From an uncultured Clostridia bacterium (GTDB lineage: Bacteria > Bacillota > Clostridia > Christensenellales > UBA1242): a DNA stretch of 64,000 bases. Location of the stretch: NCBI GenBank assembly GCA_934754475.1, contig CAKVHV010000002.1:951-64950 (forward strand). Reading direction: 5' to 3'. The position numbers and the translations under genes were made by a program. The notes beneath the pieces are model-generated. The model made no database searches and was not told the DNA's origin. It worked only from the letters and a program-made list of their open reading frames with translations. Positions 5,463 through 62,561 of the stretch are shown here, piece after piece (positions within the stretch are counted from its first letter, which is position 1; every line of letters starts with the position of its first letter).

Positions 5463-6362
5463 TTACAAATCTTTTTCTGCCATAAAATAGTATGTAGAAA
5501 TTTTGTAACCAGAGTATCCATACATTTTGTCTAATCCTGTGTATGTATATCCCAAACTAGCATCTTTAAGCCCAATTTCCTTTAAATACTTAGTTCCCAT
5601 ATTAACCATTTTTGATGCGATTCCCTGATGCATTTCGCTAGACGAAACACAAGTACATCCAACAGAACCCAAATTTTTGCCTTCTGTTTCAATAGAAACA
5701 ATTAGTGACCCAACTATTTTATTGTTTTTAATAGCAACTAACACTTTTTGATTGTTATTCTCTTCGTATAATTTTGGATTTTTGTAATACTCAGAAAACT
5801 TTTCACTCTGATATTGACAAGCATCATCTGCACACACCAATATATCTTCCATATCTTTTAAAGTAGCCCATCTAAAACTTACACCTTCAATCGATTTTTT
5901 CATTTCAACATAATCTTTTAATTGCATTTTCATATCAAAACAATTACAGTCGCCCCAAGCATGAGTATATAGTTGATTTTCAAAAAAATTAGATGCCTTA
6001 TCGTCAACTTCCTTGCTCAAATTTTCGTTTACACTATCTGTATACTTTCTACTAGTCGGAACACCCGGCATTAAATAATCATATCCTGCACCTACTGTAA
6101 TTTTGTCATAGCCACAAGATTTAATATGTTCTTCACATTGTTTTAATAGTTTGCTTCCGATACCCTTATTCCTATATTCTTTATCTACAACCAAAAGCAA
6201 AATAGTATTTTTATTGACAACCGCACACGCAATTAATTTGTCATTTTTTCTTTTTTCAAAAACGACATTATCTTTGTTATCTATAATATTTAAAGCAGTT
6301 TTTTCTTCTCTATTAATATACGGGAAATTCCTTTTAAACATTTCATATATTTCTTCTTTCAT
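5463..6362 (-). CDS. Tandem-GNAT N-acetyltransferase
   Basis: Two acetyl-CoA-binding type segments (VVDKEYRNKGIGSKLL and SEMHQGIASKMV) in one 299-aa chain. Confidence 0.65.
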   Translation of the reverse strand: MKEEIYEMFKRNFPYINREEKTALNIIDNKDNVVFEKRKNDKLIACAVVNKNTILLLVVDKEYRNKGIGSKLLKQCEEHIKSCGYDKITVGAGYDYLMPGVPTSRKYTDSVNENLSKEVDDKASNFFENQLYTHAWGDCNCFDMKMQLKDYVEMKKSIEGVSFRWATLKDMEDILVCADDACQYQSEKFSEYYKNPKLYEENNNQKVLVAIKNNKIVGSLIVSIETEGKNLGSVGCTCVSSSEMHQGIASKMVNMGTKYLKEIGLKDASLGYTYTGLDKMYGYSGYKISTYYFMAEKDL

Positions 6363-6403
6363 ACTAGACCACCTTTATTGCAAAGTTTGTGTTAAAAATA
6401 ACG

Positions 6404-9525: not shown

Positions 9526-9748
9526 ATTATCCCCCATAAGATAATTGTATTATATCACAAAACATTTTAAATTTAAATAAAAAACCACCTTATATTTATA
9601 ATTTATTCTTCACATTATTAAATGTGTTGATTAAATAAACATAATCATCACACACAAGTCCAGTTGCACAAAAAAAGATACCTATAAGGCATCATTTTGG
9701 TGCGGATAAATGGATGTGTATTAAGGAGACACATTGTCGACGTCAATT

Positions 9749-9792
9749 CTCGGGTGGCAGACATGTTCCATGGCTGACGAGTTCCCGAGTAC
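9749..9792 (-). other. Conserved 44-nt nested-hairpin motif, copy 1 of 3
   Basis: The minus-strand sequence gtaCTCGGGaactcgtCAGccatggaacatgtCTGccaCCCGAG is identical (44/44) to 12019-12062. 26 of 44 positions are G/C. Confidence 0.7.
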
Positions 9793-9860
9793 AATGCACG
9801 GAAGTGCTGGTAAGTCTCTCTTGAGACTTGTGTGCATTGCACACTCAAATCCAGTTGCAC

Positions 9861-9884
9861 AAAAAAAGATACCTATAAGGTATC
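9861..9884 (-). terminator. Terminator of tRNA-Leu(GAG)
   Basis: On the minus strand: gatacct-tat-aggtatc hairpin followed by T7. Confidence 0.6.
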
Positions 9885-9888
9885 ATTT

Positions 9889-9972
9889 TGGTGCGGATAA
9901 CTGGATTTGAACCAGCACGGGTCTCCCCACAAACACCTCAAGCTTGCGCGTCTGCCATTCCGCCATATCCGC
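9889..9972 (-). tRNA. tRNA-Leu(GAG)
   Basis: Manual cloverleaf. Acceptor GCGGATA/TATCCGC, anticodon arm CAAGC-TTGAGGT-GTTTG, long variable arm, T-loop TTCAAAT, encoded CCA. 84 nt. Confidence 0.9.
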
Positions 9973-10161: not shown

Positions 10162-11046
10162 ATGAAATTTTTAGATTTTTTAAAAAAGAAAAACGAAATG
10201 CAGAAAGCTGACGATGTAGCCAGCACAACAAATAATCAGGAACCAAAATCTGTGAATACACAAGCTGTTGTTGATGATTTCCAAGACATACTTGAACAAG
10301 AATCTTTAAGATTTTTCCCAGAAACCGGAATTTGGTTTAGTGGTTGTTTTTCGAGACCTAATGATGTAGCATACGCATATCTTCCTTGCCATTTGAGAGA
10401 TAATCTTTGGTTAAGCAAATTAATGCAGCAAAATCTTAGCGAAATTGGTGTTAATATTCCTTTAAATAAAATTAGGAAATTTGTTTCTACATCAGAAAAT
10501 TTCCAAGAATTAAGACATGCTTATGAACTCAAGATTGTCAAGTGGCAAATTGACTTTATAAAAAATGGTGGAGAAAATTGGGTTGCTCCAAAAGGATATG
10601 ACGAAGCATCTTTGTTATTTGGTGAAAATATTGACAAAATTATTCGTGGTGGAGTATCAAGAACTTTGCAATCAATTGGAATGAATTATGATGTAATCGA
10701 AGAAGGACTTGAAAAGTATTCAGATGAGTGGAGACCAAGTAGTATGATGCTTGGATTTAAAAACAAGTTTGAAAAACCTATGTTTTTGGATATTTCTCCA
10801 GAACCAGCTAGTTGGGAACATAGACAGAACTGGTTAGCAAACAGAGAATATAAATATTATCTTGAACATAAAGATTCCGTAGACAAGTATGGTACACCAA
10901 CTTCAGCCATGAAAATGACACCAGAAGAACATAGAGAATTAATTTCAATACTTAACAAACAAAATAATGACAGATTGGAATATATTAATGAACTAAAGAA
11001 GAATAGTGGTAGAGATTCTAAAGAATTTCATCAACCATGGAAATAA
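10162..11046 (+). CDS. Hypothetical protein (294 aa)
   Basis: Long ORF; ATG preceded by ataGGTGGtatatt. No family recognised. Confidence 0.6.
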   Translation: MKFLDFLKKKNEMQKADDVASTTNNQEPKSVNTQAVVDDFQDILEQESLRFFPETGIWFSGCFSRPNDVAYAYLPCHLRDNLWLSKLMQQNLSEIGVNIPLNKIRKFVSTSENFQELRHAYELKIVKWQIDFIKNGGENWVAPKGYDEASLLFGENIDKIIRGGVSRTLQSIGMNYDVIEEGLEKYSDEWRPSSMMLGFKNKFEKPMFLDISPEPASWEHRQNWLANREYKYYLEHKDSVDKYGTPTSAMKMTPEEHRELISILNKQNNDRLEYINELKKNSGRDSKEFHQPWK

Positions 11047-11550: not shown

Positions 11551-11768
11551 TAATTTCTCTTAACTCGTACAACTAAATATGGCCTATTAGCTCAGTAGGC
11601 GCGACGCGTTAATAAATTTTGCCAGTGGCAAGATTTTAGCCAAAGCGGGAGACACTTTAGGTGTCGACGGAAGAGTTTACTCTACCTACGCTCACTAGCA
11701 ACTCTGACTGATAGTTTATATAATTCCCTTAACTCGTACAACTTAATATGGCCTATTAGCTCAGTAGG
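11551..11768 (+). repeat. Direct repeats (11551-11599 and 11721-11768) around a 121-nt GC-rich insert. The upstream repeat ends in an orphan 19-nt tRNA-Lys 5' fragment
   Basis: taatt(t)c(t/c)cttaactcgtacaact(a/t)aatatggcctattagctcagtagg occurs twice. The second copy continues into the intact tRNA-Lys; the first runs into cgcgacgcgtt... Confidence 0.85.
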
Positions 11769-11828: not shown

Positions 11829-11911
11829 GCGGATGTGGCGAAATTGGCAGACGCACCAGACTTAGGATCTGGCGGGAAACCATGGGGGTTCAAGTCCTCT
11901 CATCCGCACCA
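11829..11911 (+). tRNA. tRNA-Leu(UAG)
   Basis: Acceptor GCGGATG/CATCCGC, anticodon arm CCAGA-CTTAGGA-TCTGG, long variable arm, encoded CCA. 83 nt. Confidence 0.9.
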
Positions 11912-11917
11912 AAAAAT

Positions 11918-11939
11918 GCACCATTTACGGTGCTTTTTT
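11918..11939 (+). terminator. Terminator of the tRNA cluster
   Basis: gcacc-atttac-ggtgc hairpin followed by T6. The same hairpin recurs at 12114-12135. Confidence 0.65.
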
Positions 11940-12018
11940 GTTTCTTTATTCGCGTCCTTTAGTGCTTGACAGCACTTTGATTATTGCATAATCAGAACCC
12001 CCACTTTCCATGGGGAAG

Positions 12019-12062
12019 GTACTCGGGAACTCGTCAGCCATGGAACATGTCTGCCACCCGAG
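12019..12062 (+). other. Conserved 44-nt nested-hairpin motif, copy 2 of 3
   Basis: Outer stem CTCGGG/CCCGAG. Inner stem CAGCCATG/CATGTCTG has one C.T mismatch. Confidence 0.7.
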
Positions 12063-12213
12063 ATATATTCCTTTCAGGCATATAGACAAGTCCTCTCATC
12101 CGCACCAAAAAATGCACCTTTTACGGTGCTTTTTTGTTTCTTCATTCGCGTCCTTTAGTGCTTGTCAGCACTTTGATTATTGCATAATCAGAACCCCCAC
12201 TTCCATGGGGAAG

Positions 12214-12257
12214 GTACTCGGGAACTCGTCAGGCATGATACATGCCTGCCACCCGAG
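12214..12257 (+). other. Conserved 44-nt nested-hairpin motif, copy 3 of 3
   Basis: Same outer stem. The inner stem is now a perfect CAGGCATG/CATGCCTG, because both partners of the mismatched pair have changed. Confidence 0.7.
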
Positions 12258-12390
12258 ATATATTCTTTTCAGTCATATAAACAAGACTCTTCTCCCTACA
12301 TTACAAAATGAAACAAATAATTTTCAAAACCTATTGAAATTAGATAATTTGTATGATAAAATACTCAAAGAAAAAACTTGGGGGAAAATT

Positions 12391-19807: not shown

Positions 19808-20083
19808 CTTATTTCTCCTTATTCCTTTTTTGATAAGTATAATCTAGGAAGATTAAACAAAGTCGTCCCCACGGACACCTTGTTTTAATCTGACGAAGTT
19901 TTCAATCTATATGCCCACGATTTATCGTGGTTGTTGCTTTTTAAAGCAACGTGAGATTTGGTGCAACCTAATTTCACTTTTACACATTCCTTATCACACA
20001 TTCCTTATGATTATTGATTATATTATCGGAAGTTGTCGGCAAGCAGCCCAAAGGGATATTTGCCAGCAACTGATGTTTATTCA

Positions 20084-20166
20084 ATCTATGTAACCACGAT
20101 TTATCGTGGTGTTTGCGATAGCAAATTGTTTTGTGAATGTAATGAACAAAGCAATATCACATAGAT
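20084..20166 (+). ncRNA. Candidate structured RNA module, family C type B
   Basis: Closing stem atctatgt/acatagat encloses three hairpins: CCACGA..TCGTGG, TTTGC-gata-GCAAA and TTGTTTTGT-N11-ACAAAGCAA (one G.U). Confidence 0.45.
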
Positions 20167-20234
20167 TATAATCTAGGAAGATTAAACAAAGTCGTCCCCA
20201 CAGGACACCTTGTTTTAATCTGACGACGTTTTCA

Positions 20235-20319
20235 ATCTATATGTCCACGATTTATCGTGGTTGTTGCTTTTTAAAGCAACGTGAAATTTGGTGCAACCTA
20301 ATTTCACTAACATATAGAT
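20235..20319 (+). ncRNA. Candidate structured RNA module, family C type A
   Basis: Closing stem atctatatg/catatagat encloses three hairpins: CCACGA..TCGTGG, GTTGCTTT-tt-AAAGCAAC and GTGAAATT-N11-AATTTCAC. Confidence 0.45.
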
Positions 20320-27540: not shown

Positions 27541-27675
27541 ATCTATGTTACATGCTTTGTTAATTTCATTCACAAATCAACTTGCTATCGCAAATTCCAC
27601 GATTAAATCGTGGTAACATAGATTGATAAACATCAGTTTTGCTTGAAAATGACTTCGTCGCTTTCAGACAAAACT
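27541..27675 (-). repeat. Single family C module (type B) in inverted orientation
   Basis: Core at 27541-27623: closing stem atctatgtta/taacatagat, CCACGA-ttta-TCGTGG and TTTGC-gata-GCAAA on the minus strand. The leader shares ctgatgtttatcaatctatg with 20070-20090. Confidence 0.85.
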
Positions 27676-62075: not shown

Positions 62076-62253
62076 TTTTGTTTTCTCCTTAATTGCCTAT
62101 TTTATAAGATTTTTTGTATTTTGCATAGTACTTATGCATAGTAGTAATAAATAGACTTGATTTAAAATTTATTATACATTGCAAATAAAATCTAGGAAGT
62201 TGAGAGTAACACAAGTGTTTTAAATTTGTATTACCGAAACGACGACGTTTTCA

Positions 62254-62337
62254 ATCTATGTGACCACGATTTCATCGTGGCATTTGCGATAGCAAATTGG
62301 TTTGTGAATGTAATGAACAAAGCAACTTTACATGGAT
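62254..62337 (+). ncRNA. Candidate structured RNA module, family C type B
   Basis: Closing stem atctatgt/acatggat with a U.G pair at 62257/62334. Hairpins as in 20084-20166. Confidence 0.45.
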
Positions 62338-62407
62338 TATAATAATCTAAGAAGATTAAACAAAGTCGTCCGCTAGGACACCTTGATTTAATCTGACGAC
62401 GATTTCA

Positions 62408-62490
62408 ATCTATGTGACCACGATTTTATCGTGGGTTTGCGATAGCAAATTGGTTTGTGAATGCAATGAACAAACCAATATCACATAGAT
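62408..62490 (+). ncRNA. Candidate structured RNA module, family C type B
   Basis: Perfect closing stem and a perfect fourth hairpin, TTGGTTTGT/ACAAACCAA. Confidence 0.45.
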
Positions 62491-62561
62491 TATAACAGAT
62501 TTTATTAATATAAGCAAAAAAAGTTGAACCTAAAAATTCAACTTTTTTTAAAAACAAATAA

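Follow-up and report, generated by a model that had tools for sequence, protein, structure and literature searches.

The stretch of DNA analysed in this study, a window of 64,000 nucleotides (nt) from an uncultured Clostridia bacterium to whose numbering all coordinates refer unless a relative is named, carries a short insert directly behind its tRNA-Leu(GAG) gene, read here on the minus strand and flanked by two copies of the tail of that gene. With a probability that we would put at about 0.5, this insert is a copy of a lineage-specific, non-coding and non-autonomous family of miniature insertion elements that is confined to the 3' ends of tRNA-Leu genes. The inserts are about 120–135 nt long, and about 180–200 nt when the duplicated tRNA tail is counted with them as a unit. 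An earlier note, made from the letters of the window alone, had described the repeat, a nested-hairpin motif shared with two units behind tRNA-Leu(UAG), and three hairpins in front of that motif, and all of its coordinates and counts hold: the tail is repeated at 55/57 positions (9850–9906 vs. 9659–9715), the motif is identical at 44/44 positions (9749–9792 vs. 12019–12062), and the hairpins lie exactly where they had been placed (Table 1). The duplicated tail is, as had also been stated, that of tRNA-Leu(GAG) with its own terminator, each copy being flanked by the tail of its own target.

Core, right arms and sister copies

The GAG insert is tied to those at tRNA-Leu(UAG) by its core, which is identical at 45/45 positions between 9748–9792 and 12019–12063, a match that 0/100 shuffles gave, and which is 91% identical in the second UAG unit. 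With an identical core, the GAG and UAG inserts do belong to the same element family, as the earlier note had proposed, and all three cores of the window have the same orientation relative to their tRNA. Across the copies the core reads GTACTCGG..CGTCAR..YTGCCACCCGAGA or, written out in detail, GTACTCGG(G)-N4-5-C(C)GTCA(G/A)-variable loop or hairpin-(C/T)TGCCACCCGAGA. It is conserved also in the related lineages L063 and L074, in both of which the nested inner hairpin of the window is absent, and it recurs as a same-sequence stretch of 37–45 nt at two tRNAs of one genome and in three species. No variation among copies was seen in the outer core helix, and only two pairs of the core change on both sides, a number equalled by 59/500 shuffles. 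Covariation in the core is not significant, and the core is therefore conserved as sequence. Two copies within one genome share it exactly although their arms are different, yet species differ in it, a pattern to be expected of copies that derive from a single recent master or co-evolve with a trans-acting partner.

The right arms, which follow the core, fall into two types. Type 1 (TATAT...ATATAGA) is carried by both UAG units of the window, by L063 and by the decayed unit A of L074, and type 2 (ATTGACG...TTAAT(A/G)CAC) by the GAG unit and by unit B of L074. The arm type is independent of the target tRNA, and the types are common to several species and targets.

Relatives were reached by walking from SpoIVA homologues at graded identity, which gave the orthologous tRNA region in six further lineages. 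Seven copies were found in three species (three in the window, two in L063/L064 and two in L074), together with a truncated copy in L059. All copies stand directly after a tRNA-Leu gene in one orientation and leave the tRNA intact, and their parts are ordered as [terminator], hairpin 1, hairpin 2, T-arm complement/hairpin 3, core, right arm with terminal hairpin, and tRNA 3' fragment; the order of hairpins, core and terminal hairpin first described in the window thus recurs in other species. L059 (SpoIVA identity 97%) has at its GAG site a single tRNA with terminator and flank (...GTGCAACTGGACTTGAGTGTGCCAATTATG...) and no insert, and at its UAG site the terminator, hairpins 1 and 2 and GACCCCCC only, followed by a deletion. 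The UAG site of L063/L064 (84%) holds two tandem units that are 98% alike and about 80% identical to those of the window, with the blocks GTACTCGG, CGTCAG and CTGCCACCCGAGATATAT kept, and after them a third intact 21-nt tRNA fragment and then a different terminator. This degree of identity, set beside that of SpoIVA, bears out the earlier statement that the units are no decaying scar. L074 (73%) has at its UAG site a decayed unit adjoining the tRNA and an intact, different unit beyond it, the pair being flanked by a 51-nt duplication (47/51) of the tRNA tail and native terminator, and in L067 and L093 (78%) the UAG site is a plain tRNA with its terminator, unoccupied. tRNA-Leu(GAG) was not found at the corresponding place in L063/L064, L074, L067 or L093, and a family profile (nhmmer) gave no further copy in about 0.8 Mb of loci. 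The comparison of tRNA-Leu flanks in related genomes that the earlier note had proposed thus yielded both further copies and unoccupied sites, so that occupied, unoccupied, tandem, truncated and decayed sites are all present among close relatives. As the decayed unit of L074 and the truncated copy of L059 demonstrate, individual copies are dispensable.

The GAG arrangement is also present in the independent assemblies L019, L020 and L021, and is therefore no assembly artefact. At positions 5700–5904 of L020, the 3' half of tRNA-Leu(UAG) differs and continues directly into other tRNA genes, an arrangement that is probably an assembly join at a repeated tRNA. The guanine plus cytosine (G+C) content of the inserts is 44–49% across the family, compared with 31% for the window, which carries housekeeping and sporulation genes (SpoIVA, SpoIIP), and 15–21% for the neighbouring spacers. 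The closest proteins are assigned to metagenome-assembled genomes of uncultured Clostridiales/Clostridia, with at least one contig from a human gut metagenome.

Table 1. Parts of the GAG locus and of the sister copies at tRNA-Leu(UAG), in window coordinates.
Feature	Position	Strand	Basis or remark
tRNA-Leu(GAG), intact target gene	9889–9972	-	ARAGORN and Rfam tRNA model
Terminator hairpin of tRNA-Leu(GAG)	9868–9884	-	Terminator scan
Target block copy 1 (X1): T loop to CCA, terminator hairpin, T run, 20–25 nt of flank	9840–9906	-	Direct repeat, base-by-base comparison
Insert proper, 124 nt, 49% G+C	9716–9839	-	Absent from close relative L059
Hairpin 1, GTGTGCA-A-TGCACAC, across left junction	9830–9844	-	Comparison with L059 site GAGTGTGCCAATTATG
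Hairpin 2, AAGTCTC-AAGA-GAGACTT	9812–9829	-	Sequence reading
ACCAGCAC, exact complement of T-stem 5' strand GTGCTGGT	9804–9811	-	11 nt upstream of core
Hairpin 3, GCAC-TTCC-GTGC	9796–9807	-	Inverted plus direct copy of tRNA positions about 45–54
Conserved family core GTACTCGGG..CGTCAG-(variable hairpin)-CTGCCACCCGAGA; outer stem CTCGGG/CCCGAG	9748–9792	-	
Type 2 right arm (ATTGACG...TTAATACAC)	9714–9747	-	Same arm type in L074 unit B
Terminal hairpin ATGTGT-CTCCTTAAT-ACACAT	9714–9734	-	Last 2 nt are part of the duplicated block
Target block copy 2 (X2): tRNA 3' fragment from T loop (ATCCATTTATCCGCACCA), terminator 9677–9693, T run, flank	9649–9715	-	
tRNA-Leu(UAG), target of the sister copies	11829–11911	+	
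UAG unit 1: terminator, hairpins 1–3, core 12019–12063, terminal hairpin, 21-nt tRNA 3' fragment	11912–12107	+	
UAG unit 2: core 12214–12258, inner hairpin changed, final tRNA fragment degenerate	12108–12303	+	

Junctions and target duplication

The right end of the element always joins the target in the T loop, at about tRNA positions 56–59. In type 1 junctions ...ATATAGA is joined to CAAGTCC (the first UAG unit of the window, both units of L063 and unit A of L074), and in type 2 junctions ...TTAAT(A/G)CAC is joined to (A/G)TC, read as ATCC or GTC (the GAG unit and unit B of L074). The position of the left junction, downstream of the tRNA, varies from copy to copy, so that the tRNA tail, with or without terminator and flank, is duplicated at varying length: 23 nt in L063, 51 nt in L074 and 67–71 nt at the GAG site. 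A precise 3' junction, a variable 5' junction and a variable duplication, by which an insertion like that of a short interspersed nuclear element (SINE) would be recognised, were thus all found, in few independent events.

With mismatches allowed, the GAG repeat comes to 67–70 nt (9840–9909 vs. 9649–9718, 93% identity, spacing 191). By comparison with L059, the 67–71-nt duplication consists of native locus sequence, including the tRNA's own terminator; the sequence of X1 is single-copy at the unoccupied L059 site, and X2 runs on into native sequence upstream of an ABC-transporter gene. To either side of the shared ATCCGCACCA both repeats are of the GAG type, and there are no hybrid sites. On the left side, the core is joined to rearranged target with 3–8 nt missing, and the inverted pieces at the ends of the GAG unit and of L074 unit B are derived from the tRNA tail only, with no parent insertion sequence (IS) in the sequence examined. 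The flank within X1 includes AACTGGATTTGA, in which the T loop and the 3' strand of the T stem recur in inverted form. This flank after the GAG terminator (window 9840–9861; L059 about 11725–11745, plus strand), AACTGGAYTTGA, holds the inverted copy over 12 nt, so that a single long palindrome spans tRNA tail, terminator and flank, also at L059.

Direct repeats of a tRNA 3' end that start in the T loop are also what a tRNA-Leu-specific tyrosine integrase would leave, and the units may be miniature integrative elements or att remnants of elements that such an enzyme moves, whether phages, integrative and conjugative elements, integrative and mobilizable elements or 'cis-mobilizable elements' (CIMEs). 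The repeats would then be attL and attR cores, the conserved core and arms would be sites for integrase and excision factor, a small circle would be moved by an integrase encoded elsewhere, and the tandems would arise by accretion. Williams, in 2002, reportedly named the T loop as a classic crossover sublocation of tRNA-targeting integrases. The tandem arrays in three species and the clean unoccupied sites in relatives agree with this explanation, as do the L063 repeat, which amounts to a 23-nt core in a unit with its own terminator, and the conservation of the element core as sequence, like a protein-binding site. CIMEs and accretion at tRNA genes are, moreover, documented in streptococci (for example PMC5704250). 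We nevertheless consider an integrase origin unlikely. Crossover within the shared ATCCGCACCA would give hybrid sites, whereas the GAG duplication is fully native with its terminator, and an inverted copy of the own target's T arm beside the core, described below, is not predicted. No inverted core-type half-site was found at the junction, where CATATAGA agrees with the expected GGATGAGA at 3/8 positions by inspection, and no integrase gene was found near any of the seven copies. Viral contigs of IMG/VR had 0 matches to core patterns, and with blastn only the tRNA part, not the core, was matched by phage and plasmid records.

Other searches likewise gave no carrier or coding function. No recombinase, transposase or reverse transcriptase is recognisable among the genes of the window, no open reading frame (ORF) lies in or beside the unit, and six-frame peptides of the core had no match among 5.8 billion proteins. 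A small protein was considered, as the antisense strand is open across the core, but the hairpin changes in UAG unit 2 alter three residues. Scans of GTDB species genomes and JGI metagenomes for GGAACTCGTCAG-N9-20-CTGCCACC gave 18 and 25 matches, all chance, in high-G+C sequence and without the outer stem; with orthologues reading GGTTCCCGTCAG or GGGACCCCGTCAA, it had been too narrow a pattern. Searches of the literature by topic and by sequence string gave nothing relevant.

Target-derived stems, hairpins and further features

The earlier note had observed that the hairpins of the GAG and UAG inserts share order and spacing whilst their stem sequences are unrelated, and had taken this as the product of selection on a folded RNA or single-stranded DNA. 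The 5' strand of hairpin 1, GTGTGCAAT, is however native flank that is present in the unoccupied L059, and only its 3' strand (GCACAC) is new, so that hairpin 1 is a fold-back across the left junction. The 3' strand of hairpin 2 and the next 8 nt (GACTT plus ACCAGCAC) equal the T arm GTGCTGGTTCAAGTC, reverse-complemented and short of 2 nt, and in hairpin 3 the T-arm complement pairs with a short piece of this tRNA segment in direct orientation. Every copy has, within 32 nt upstream of GTAC, an exact 8–9-nt complement of the T-stem 5' strand/T loop of its own tRNA, at tRNA gene positions 54–67 (p = 0.001–0.026 each). The complement in the GAG copy is to GTGCTGGT (p = 0.026, and p = 0.016 in the insert-by-tRNA test) and has no such match to tRNA-Leu(UAG); those in the UAG copies are to TGGGGGTTC or ATGGGGGTT (p = 0.001–0.007), and that in the decayed unit A of L074 is to GGTTCAAGT (p = 0.001). 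No comparable match to the other tRNA-Leu was seen, except for a weaker 7-nt match of L074 unit A in the shared T loop (GGTTCAA, p = 0.044). In a blind test of four inserts against nine tRNAs in two orientations (72 comparisons), only four values fell at p < 0.02, all of them with the own tRNA and inverted.

As part of the stems consists of target sequence and its fold-back complement, the stems of the GAG and UAG copies must differ for a reason unrelated to covariation. The same architecture with unrelated stems can, in other words, arise from target-derived fold-back junctions, and the lesson is that no RNA covariation should be read without checking unoccupied sites. G-U pairs make up 6/382 in minimum-free-energy folds of the Leu family, compared with 11.5% in shuffles, and helices of such nearly pure Watson-Crick pairing would fit DNA palindromes better than an evolving RNA. 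There is no conserved promoter before the units, and each stands behind a terminator. The RNA half of the earlier deduction is thus not upheld, given the target-derived stems, the scarce G-U pairs, the lack of significant core covariation and the lack of a promoter, whilst a folded single-stranded DNA form of the element is possible. The loop sequence TCCTT, noted before in the downstream hairpin at both loci, was confirmed for the GAG unit and UAG unit 1; in UAG unit 2 the loop reads TCTTT, and the orthologues of other species lack TCCTT. A complement between the core and the tRNA D arm (GTCTGCCA vs. TGGCAGAC) was dropped as probable chance, L074 unit B reading GTTGCCA.

A mirror-image family stands at the 5' ends of tRNA-Lys genes (window 11555–11768, plus strand; L059 10884–11027, L074 14600–14726 and L053 6398–6520, all minus strand). 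Its members have a roughly 110–124-nt hairpin-rich insert between 45–60-nt repeats of the upstream spacer and tRNA positions 1–20. In the window the insert occupies 11600–11723, the repeats consist of the Gln-Lys spacer and tRNA-Lys positions 1–20, the junction falls within the D loop, and at its far end the insert carries 10 nt complementary to the D arm (CTCTACCTAC). The family has four conserved sequence blocks and seven compensatory pairs; GGCGCGACGCG, TTAGCCAAAGCGGGA and GTCGACGGAAGAG are among the conserved blocks, and the series can also be written GGCGCGACGCG..AGCCAAAGC..CGGAAGA. Orthologues are present in L059 and L074, unoccupied sites in L063, L067 and L093, and a paralogue at tRNA-Lys(CUU) of the distant L053, directly behind a promoter. 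Between this Lys-type insert and the intact tRNA-Lys(CUU), L053 has a truncated tRNA-Lys copy (positions 1–49) with its own leader copy (6300–6400, minus strand), so partial duplications have occurred repeatedly at that gene. The tRNA-Arg/tRNA-His spacer of L067 (13464–13592, minus strand) is 130 nt long, compared with 24 nt in the window, and holds a degenerate tRNA-His 5' fragment, GGATATATTCA, and a hairpin (AGAGC-TTCG-GCTCT) with ACC behind it, complementary to the D arm of tRNA-His, GGTAGAGC; this has the look of an ancient member of the 5'-type family, now decayed. The junction positions of the Leu and Lys families, C56 in the T loop and G19/G20 in the D loop, are partners of the tertiary pair of the tRNA elbow, which is either a clue or a coincidence. 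A Lys-family pattern had 17 matches in IMG/VR, all chance and in coding regions.

The hairpins could also belong to a functional structured RNA, or to a folded single-stranded DNA signal, tied to tRNA-Leu genes, such as a small RNA (sRNA) with a tRNA-like 3' tail made by terminator read-through, or a guide-like RNA that would pair, through its T-arm complement and tRNA tail, with the tRNA or its gene. Recurrence of the architecture in three species and at two tRNAs would suit such a role, as would sense-strand folding that is more stable than in shuffles (z -1.9 to -3.6), a conservation of the units far above that of a decaying scar, and a target-complementary segment that changes with the target in the manner of a guide. 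Two double substitutions separate hairpin 2 of the window from that of L063 and leave every pair intact, CAG/CTG becomes CAA/TTG in L074 unit B, and the Lys family, which must be transcribed as it lies inside a tRNA operon, shows its seven compensatory pairs. A functional RNA is nevertheless distinctly unlikely, as besides the near absence of G-U pairs, the covariation and promoter results and the stems partly copied from the target, close relatives lack units, or have them in truncated or decayed form, and show nothing that would compensate. Rfam 15 (ribozymes, T-box, group II intron domains, tmRNA, sRNAs), searched with the window and three orthologous loci, matched only the tRNAs, the inserts and orthologues being unmatched at gathering score or at E ≤ 10 / E ≤ 1; a match to a known RNA family, which the earlier note had named as a refutation, was not found there. 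Likenesses seen by eye to a hammerhead (CUGACGAG, antisense strand), to a T-box motif (GGGUGGCA, antisense strand) and to group II domain V proved unfounded.

Inverted tRNA fragments and perfect junction palindromes are, on the other hand, what strand switching gives, and the unoccupied L059 site also has an inverted T-loop copy after its terminator. It could therefore be argued that there is no element, and that independent strand-switching rearrangements at highly transcribed tRNA genes left chance or filler sequence between the copies. This explanation is largely refuted by the shared 37–45-nt core at two tRNAs and in three species, and by right-arm types common to several species and targets; the inserts are also no mosaics of local sequence, for which k-mer coverage (p = 0.16–0.57) gave no support. 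It must be regarded as highly improbable.

Two further features of the window were recorded. An ORF of 294 amino acids without a Pfam domain (10162–11046, plus strand) lies between tRNA-Leu(GAG) and the tRNA operon, and is missing at the same place in L059, which is also without the GAG insert. Its homologues in other Clostridia stand in unrelated contexts, and relatives do not retain the synteny. A third intergenic repeat family is present at 19838–20308, 27553–27638 and 62241–62495 and at about 15180–15260 of L063; its copies are 88–97% identical and some are tandem, it contains the hairpin CCACGATTTATCGTGG and TTTGCGATAGCAAA, and it had no Rfam match at gathering score.

Proposed insertion route and comparison with known systems

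For the miniature element family that we favour, insertion would begin where an enzyme acting in trans breaks the tRNA gene site-specifically in its T-loop region, and would be completed by DNA synthesis that copies the element in from the break. A strand or template switch at the 5' side of the element, before the ends were sealed downstream, would leave an inverted T-arm piece, perfect palindromes and a duplication of variable length. The hairpins would then be DNA-level palindromes, arising as insertion by-products or belonging to a folded single-stranded form, and not helices of a functional RNA. The junction geometry, taken by analogy, resembles that of the 5' junctions of target-primed insertions.

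Several observations weigh against this account. No enzyme, autonomous parent element, excised form or intermediate was seen in the sequences examined, and only about three or four independent insertions stand behind the rule of one fixed and one variable end. The decayed copy of L074 is the one nearest to the tRNA, unlike what simple repeated insertion at an intact gene would give, and the inverted target fragment overlaps the duplicated block by 1–5 nt in some copies, where simple nick run-off predicts no overlap. The hairpins of the window and L063 keep perfect pairing, by inspection, through the double substitutions of hairpin 2, so that either a selective pressure or a palindrome-correcting mutational process keeps them intact. 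The GAG site of L059, furthermore, already carries the inverted T-loop copy AACTGGACTTGA; since the palindrome is there even without an insert, the site may be a single repeat left after loss of the element, and could reflect precise loss via the 67-nt repeats instead of an ancestral state.

It is conceivable, but we think improbable, that the Leu and Lys/His families are bacterial SINE-like counterparts, in which a trans-acting enzyme breaks the gene at tRNA-elbow positions, copying is target-primed, and the acquired complement marks the site or guides the element to it. If true, this would be a route of insertion into tRNA genes that has not been described for bacteria. tRNA genes are classic landing sites of large integrase-driven islands. 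What is found here, at tRNA ends, are two families of gene-less elements of roughly 120 nt whose junction anatomy fits neither integrases nor ordinary transposases, with a fixed T-loop (Leu) or D-loop (Lys) junction, a long variable duplication and an inverted piece of the own target. If the anatomy reflects the mechanism, it would point to an undescribed nick-and-copy insertion route in Firmicutes, for the testing of which the filled and unoccupied sites form a natural set.

Amongst known systems, the family is similar to miniature inverted-repeat transposable elements (MITEs) and small repeats (Correia, RUP and BOX, and the palindrome-associated transposable elements, PATEs, of IS200/IS605) in being small, non-coding, hairpin-rich, multicopy, variably present and presumably dependent on functions in trans. 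It differs from them in showing, in the sequence examined, no terminal inverted repeats of an identifiable parent IS, with tRNA-derived inverted pieces in some copies only, in its very low copy number and in its strict specificity for tRNA-Leu ends. The duplications of MITEs are short and fixed and those of IS200/IS605 are lacking, whereas here they are long (23–71 nt) and variable with one fixed end. An IS200/IS605-derived PATE would stand 3' of a fixed 4–5-nt site, with subterminal hairpins and without a duplication; here hairpins are present, but the duplication is long, and on its left the core borders on rearranged target.

With tRNA-targeting integrative elements and CIMEs the family shares tRNA 3'-end repeats that start from the T loop, an intact tRNA and tandem arrays. 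It is unlike them in its gene-less unit of 120–200 nt, in a native duplicated block that includes the terminator (GAG site and L074), in the inverted target fragment inside the unit, and in that neither core-type inverted half-sites nor a nearby integrase were found. The likeness to R2, L1/Alu and Dictyostelium tRNA gene-targeted retroelement (TRE) insertions is one of geometry only, drawn from the junction anatomy, with a precise and a ragged junction, a variable duplication, and 5' inversions or template jumps; the host here is a bacterium, the window has no reverse transcriptase, and the element has neither a tail nor an internal promoter.

A target-complementary segment at the insertion point that changes between GAG and UAG copies recalls guide-bearing elements, namely the IS110 bridge RNA, the exon- and intron-binding sites (EBS/IBS) of group II introns and the guide tetranucleotides of IS608. 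In the present family, however, this segment lies partly inside a hairpin and could be copied from the target, which bears on any reading of it as a bridge-RNA loop. Neither a recombinase nor an intron-encoded protein accompanies it, nor does a group II signal in Rfam, and the duplication is long, unlike anything that those systems make; an IS110 element would have an adjacent recombinase and no duplication beyond the core dinucleotide, whereas here there is no ORF and the duplication is that of 23–71 nt.

Elements of the IS1634/IS1549 type are 1.5–2 kb long, encode a DDE transposase, have terminal inverted repeats, are not tRNA-specific and make long variable target duplications, and it is in this last feature that the present family resembles them. 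Taken together, the elements are best filed as a new family, without a match in the databases searched, of a known kind, that of small non-autonomous insertion elements.

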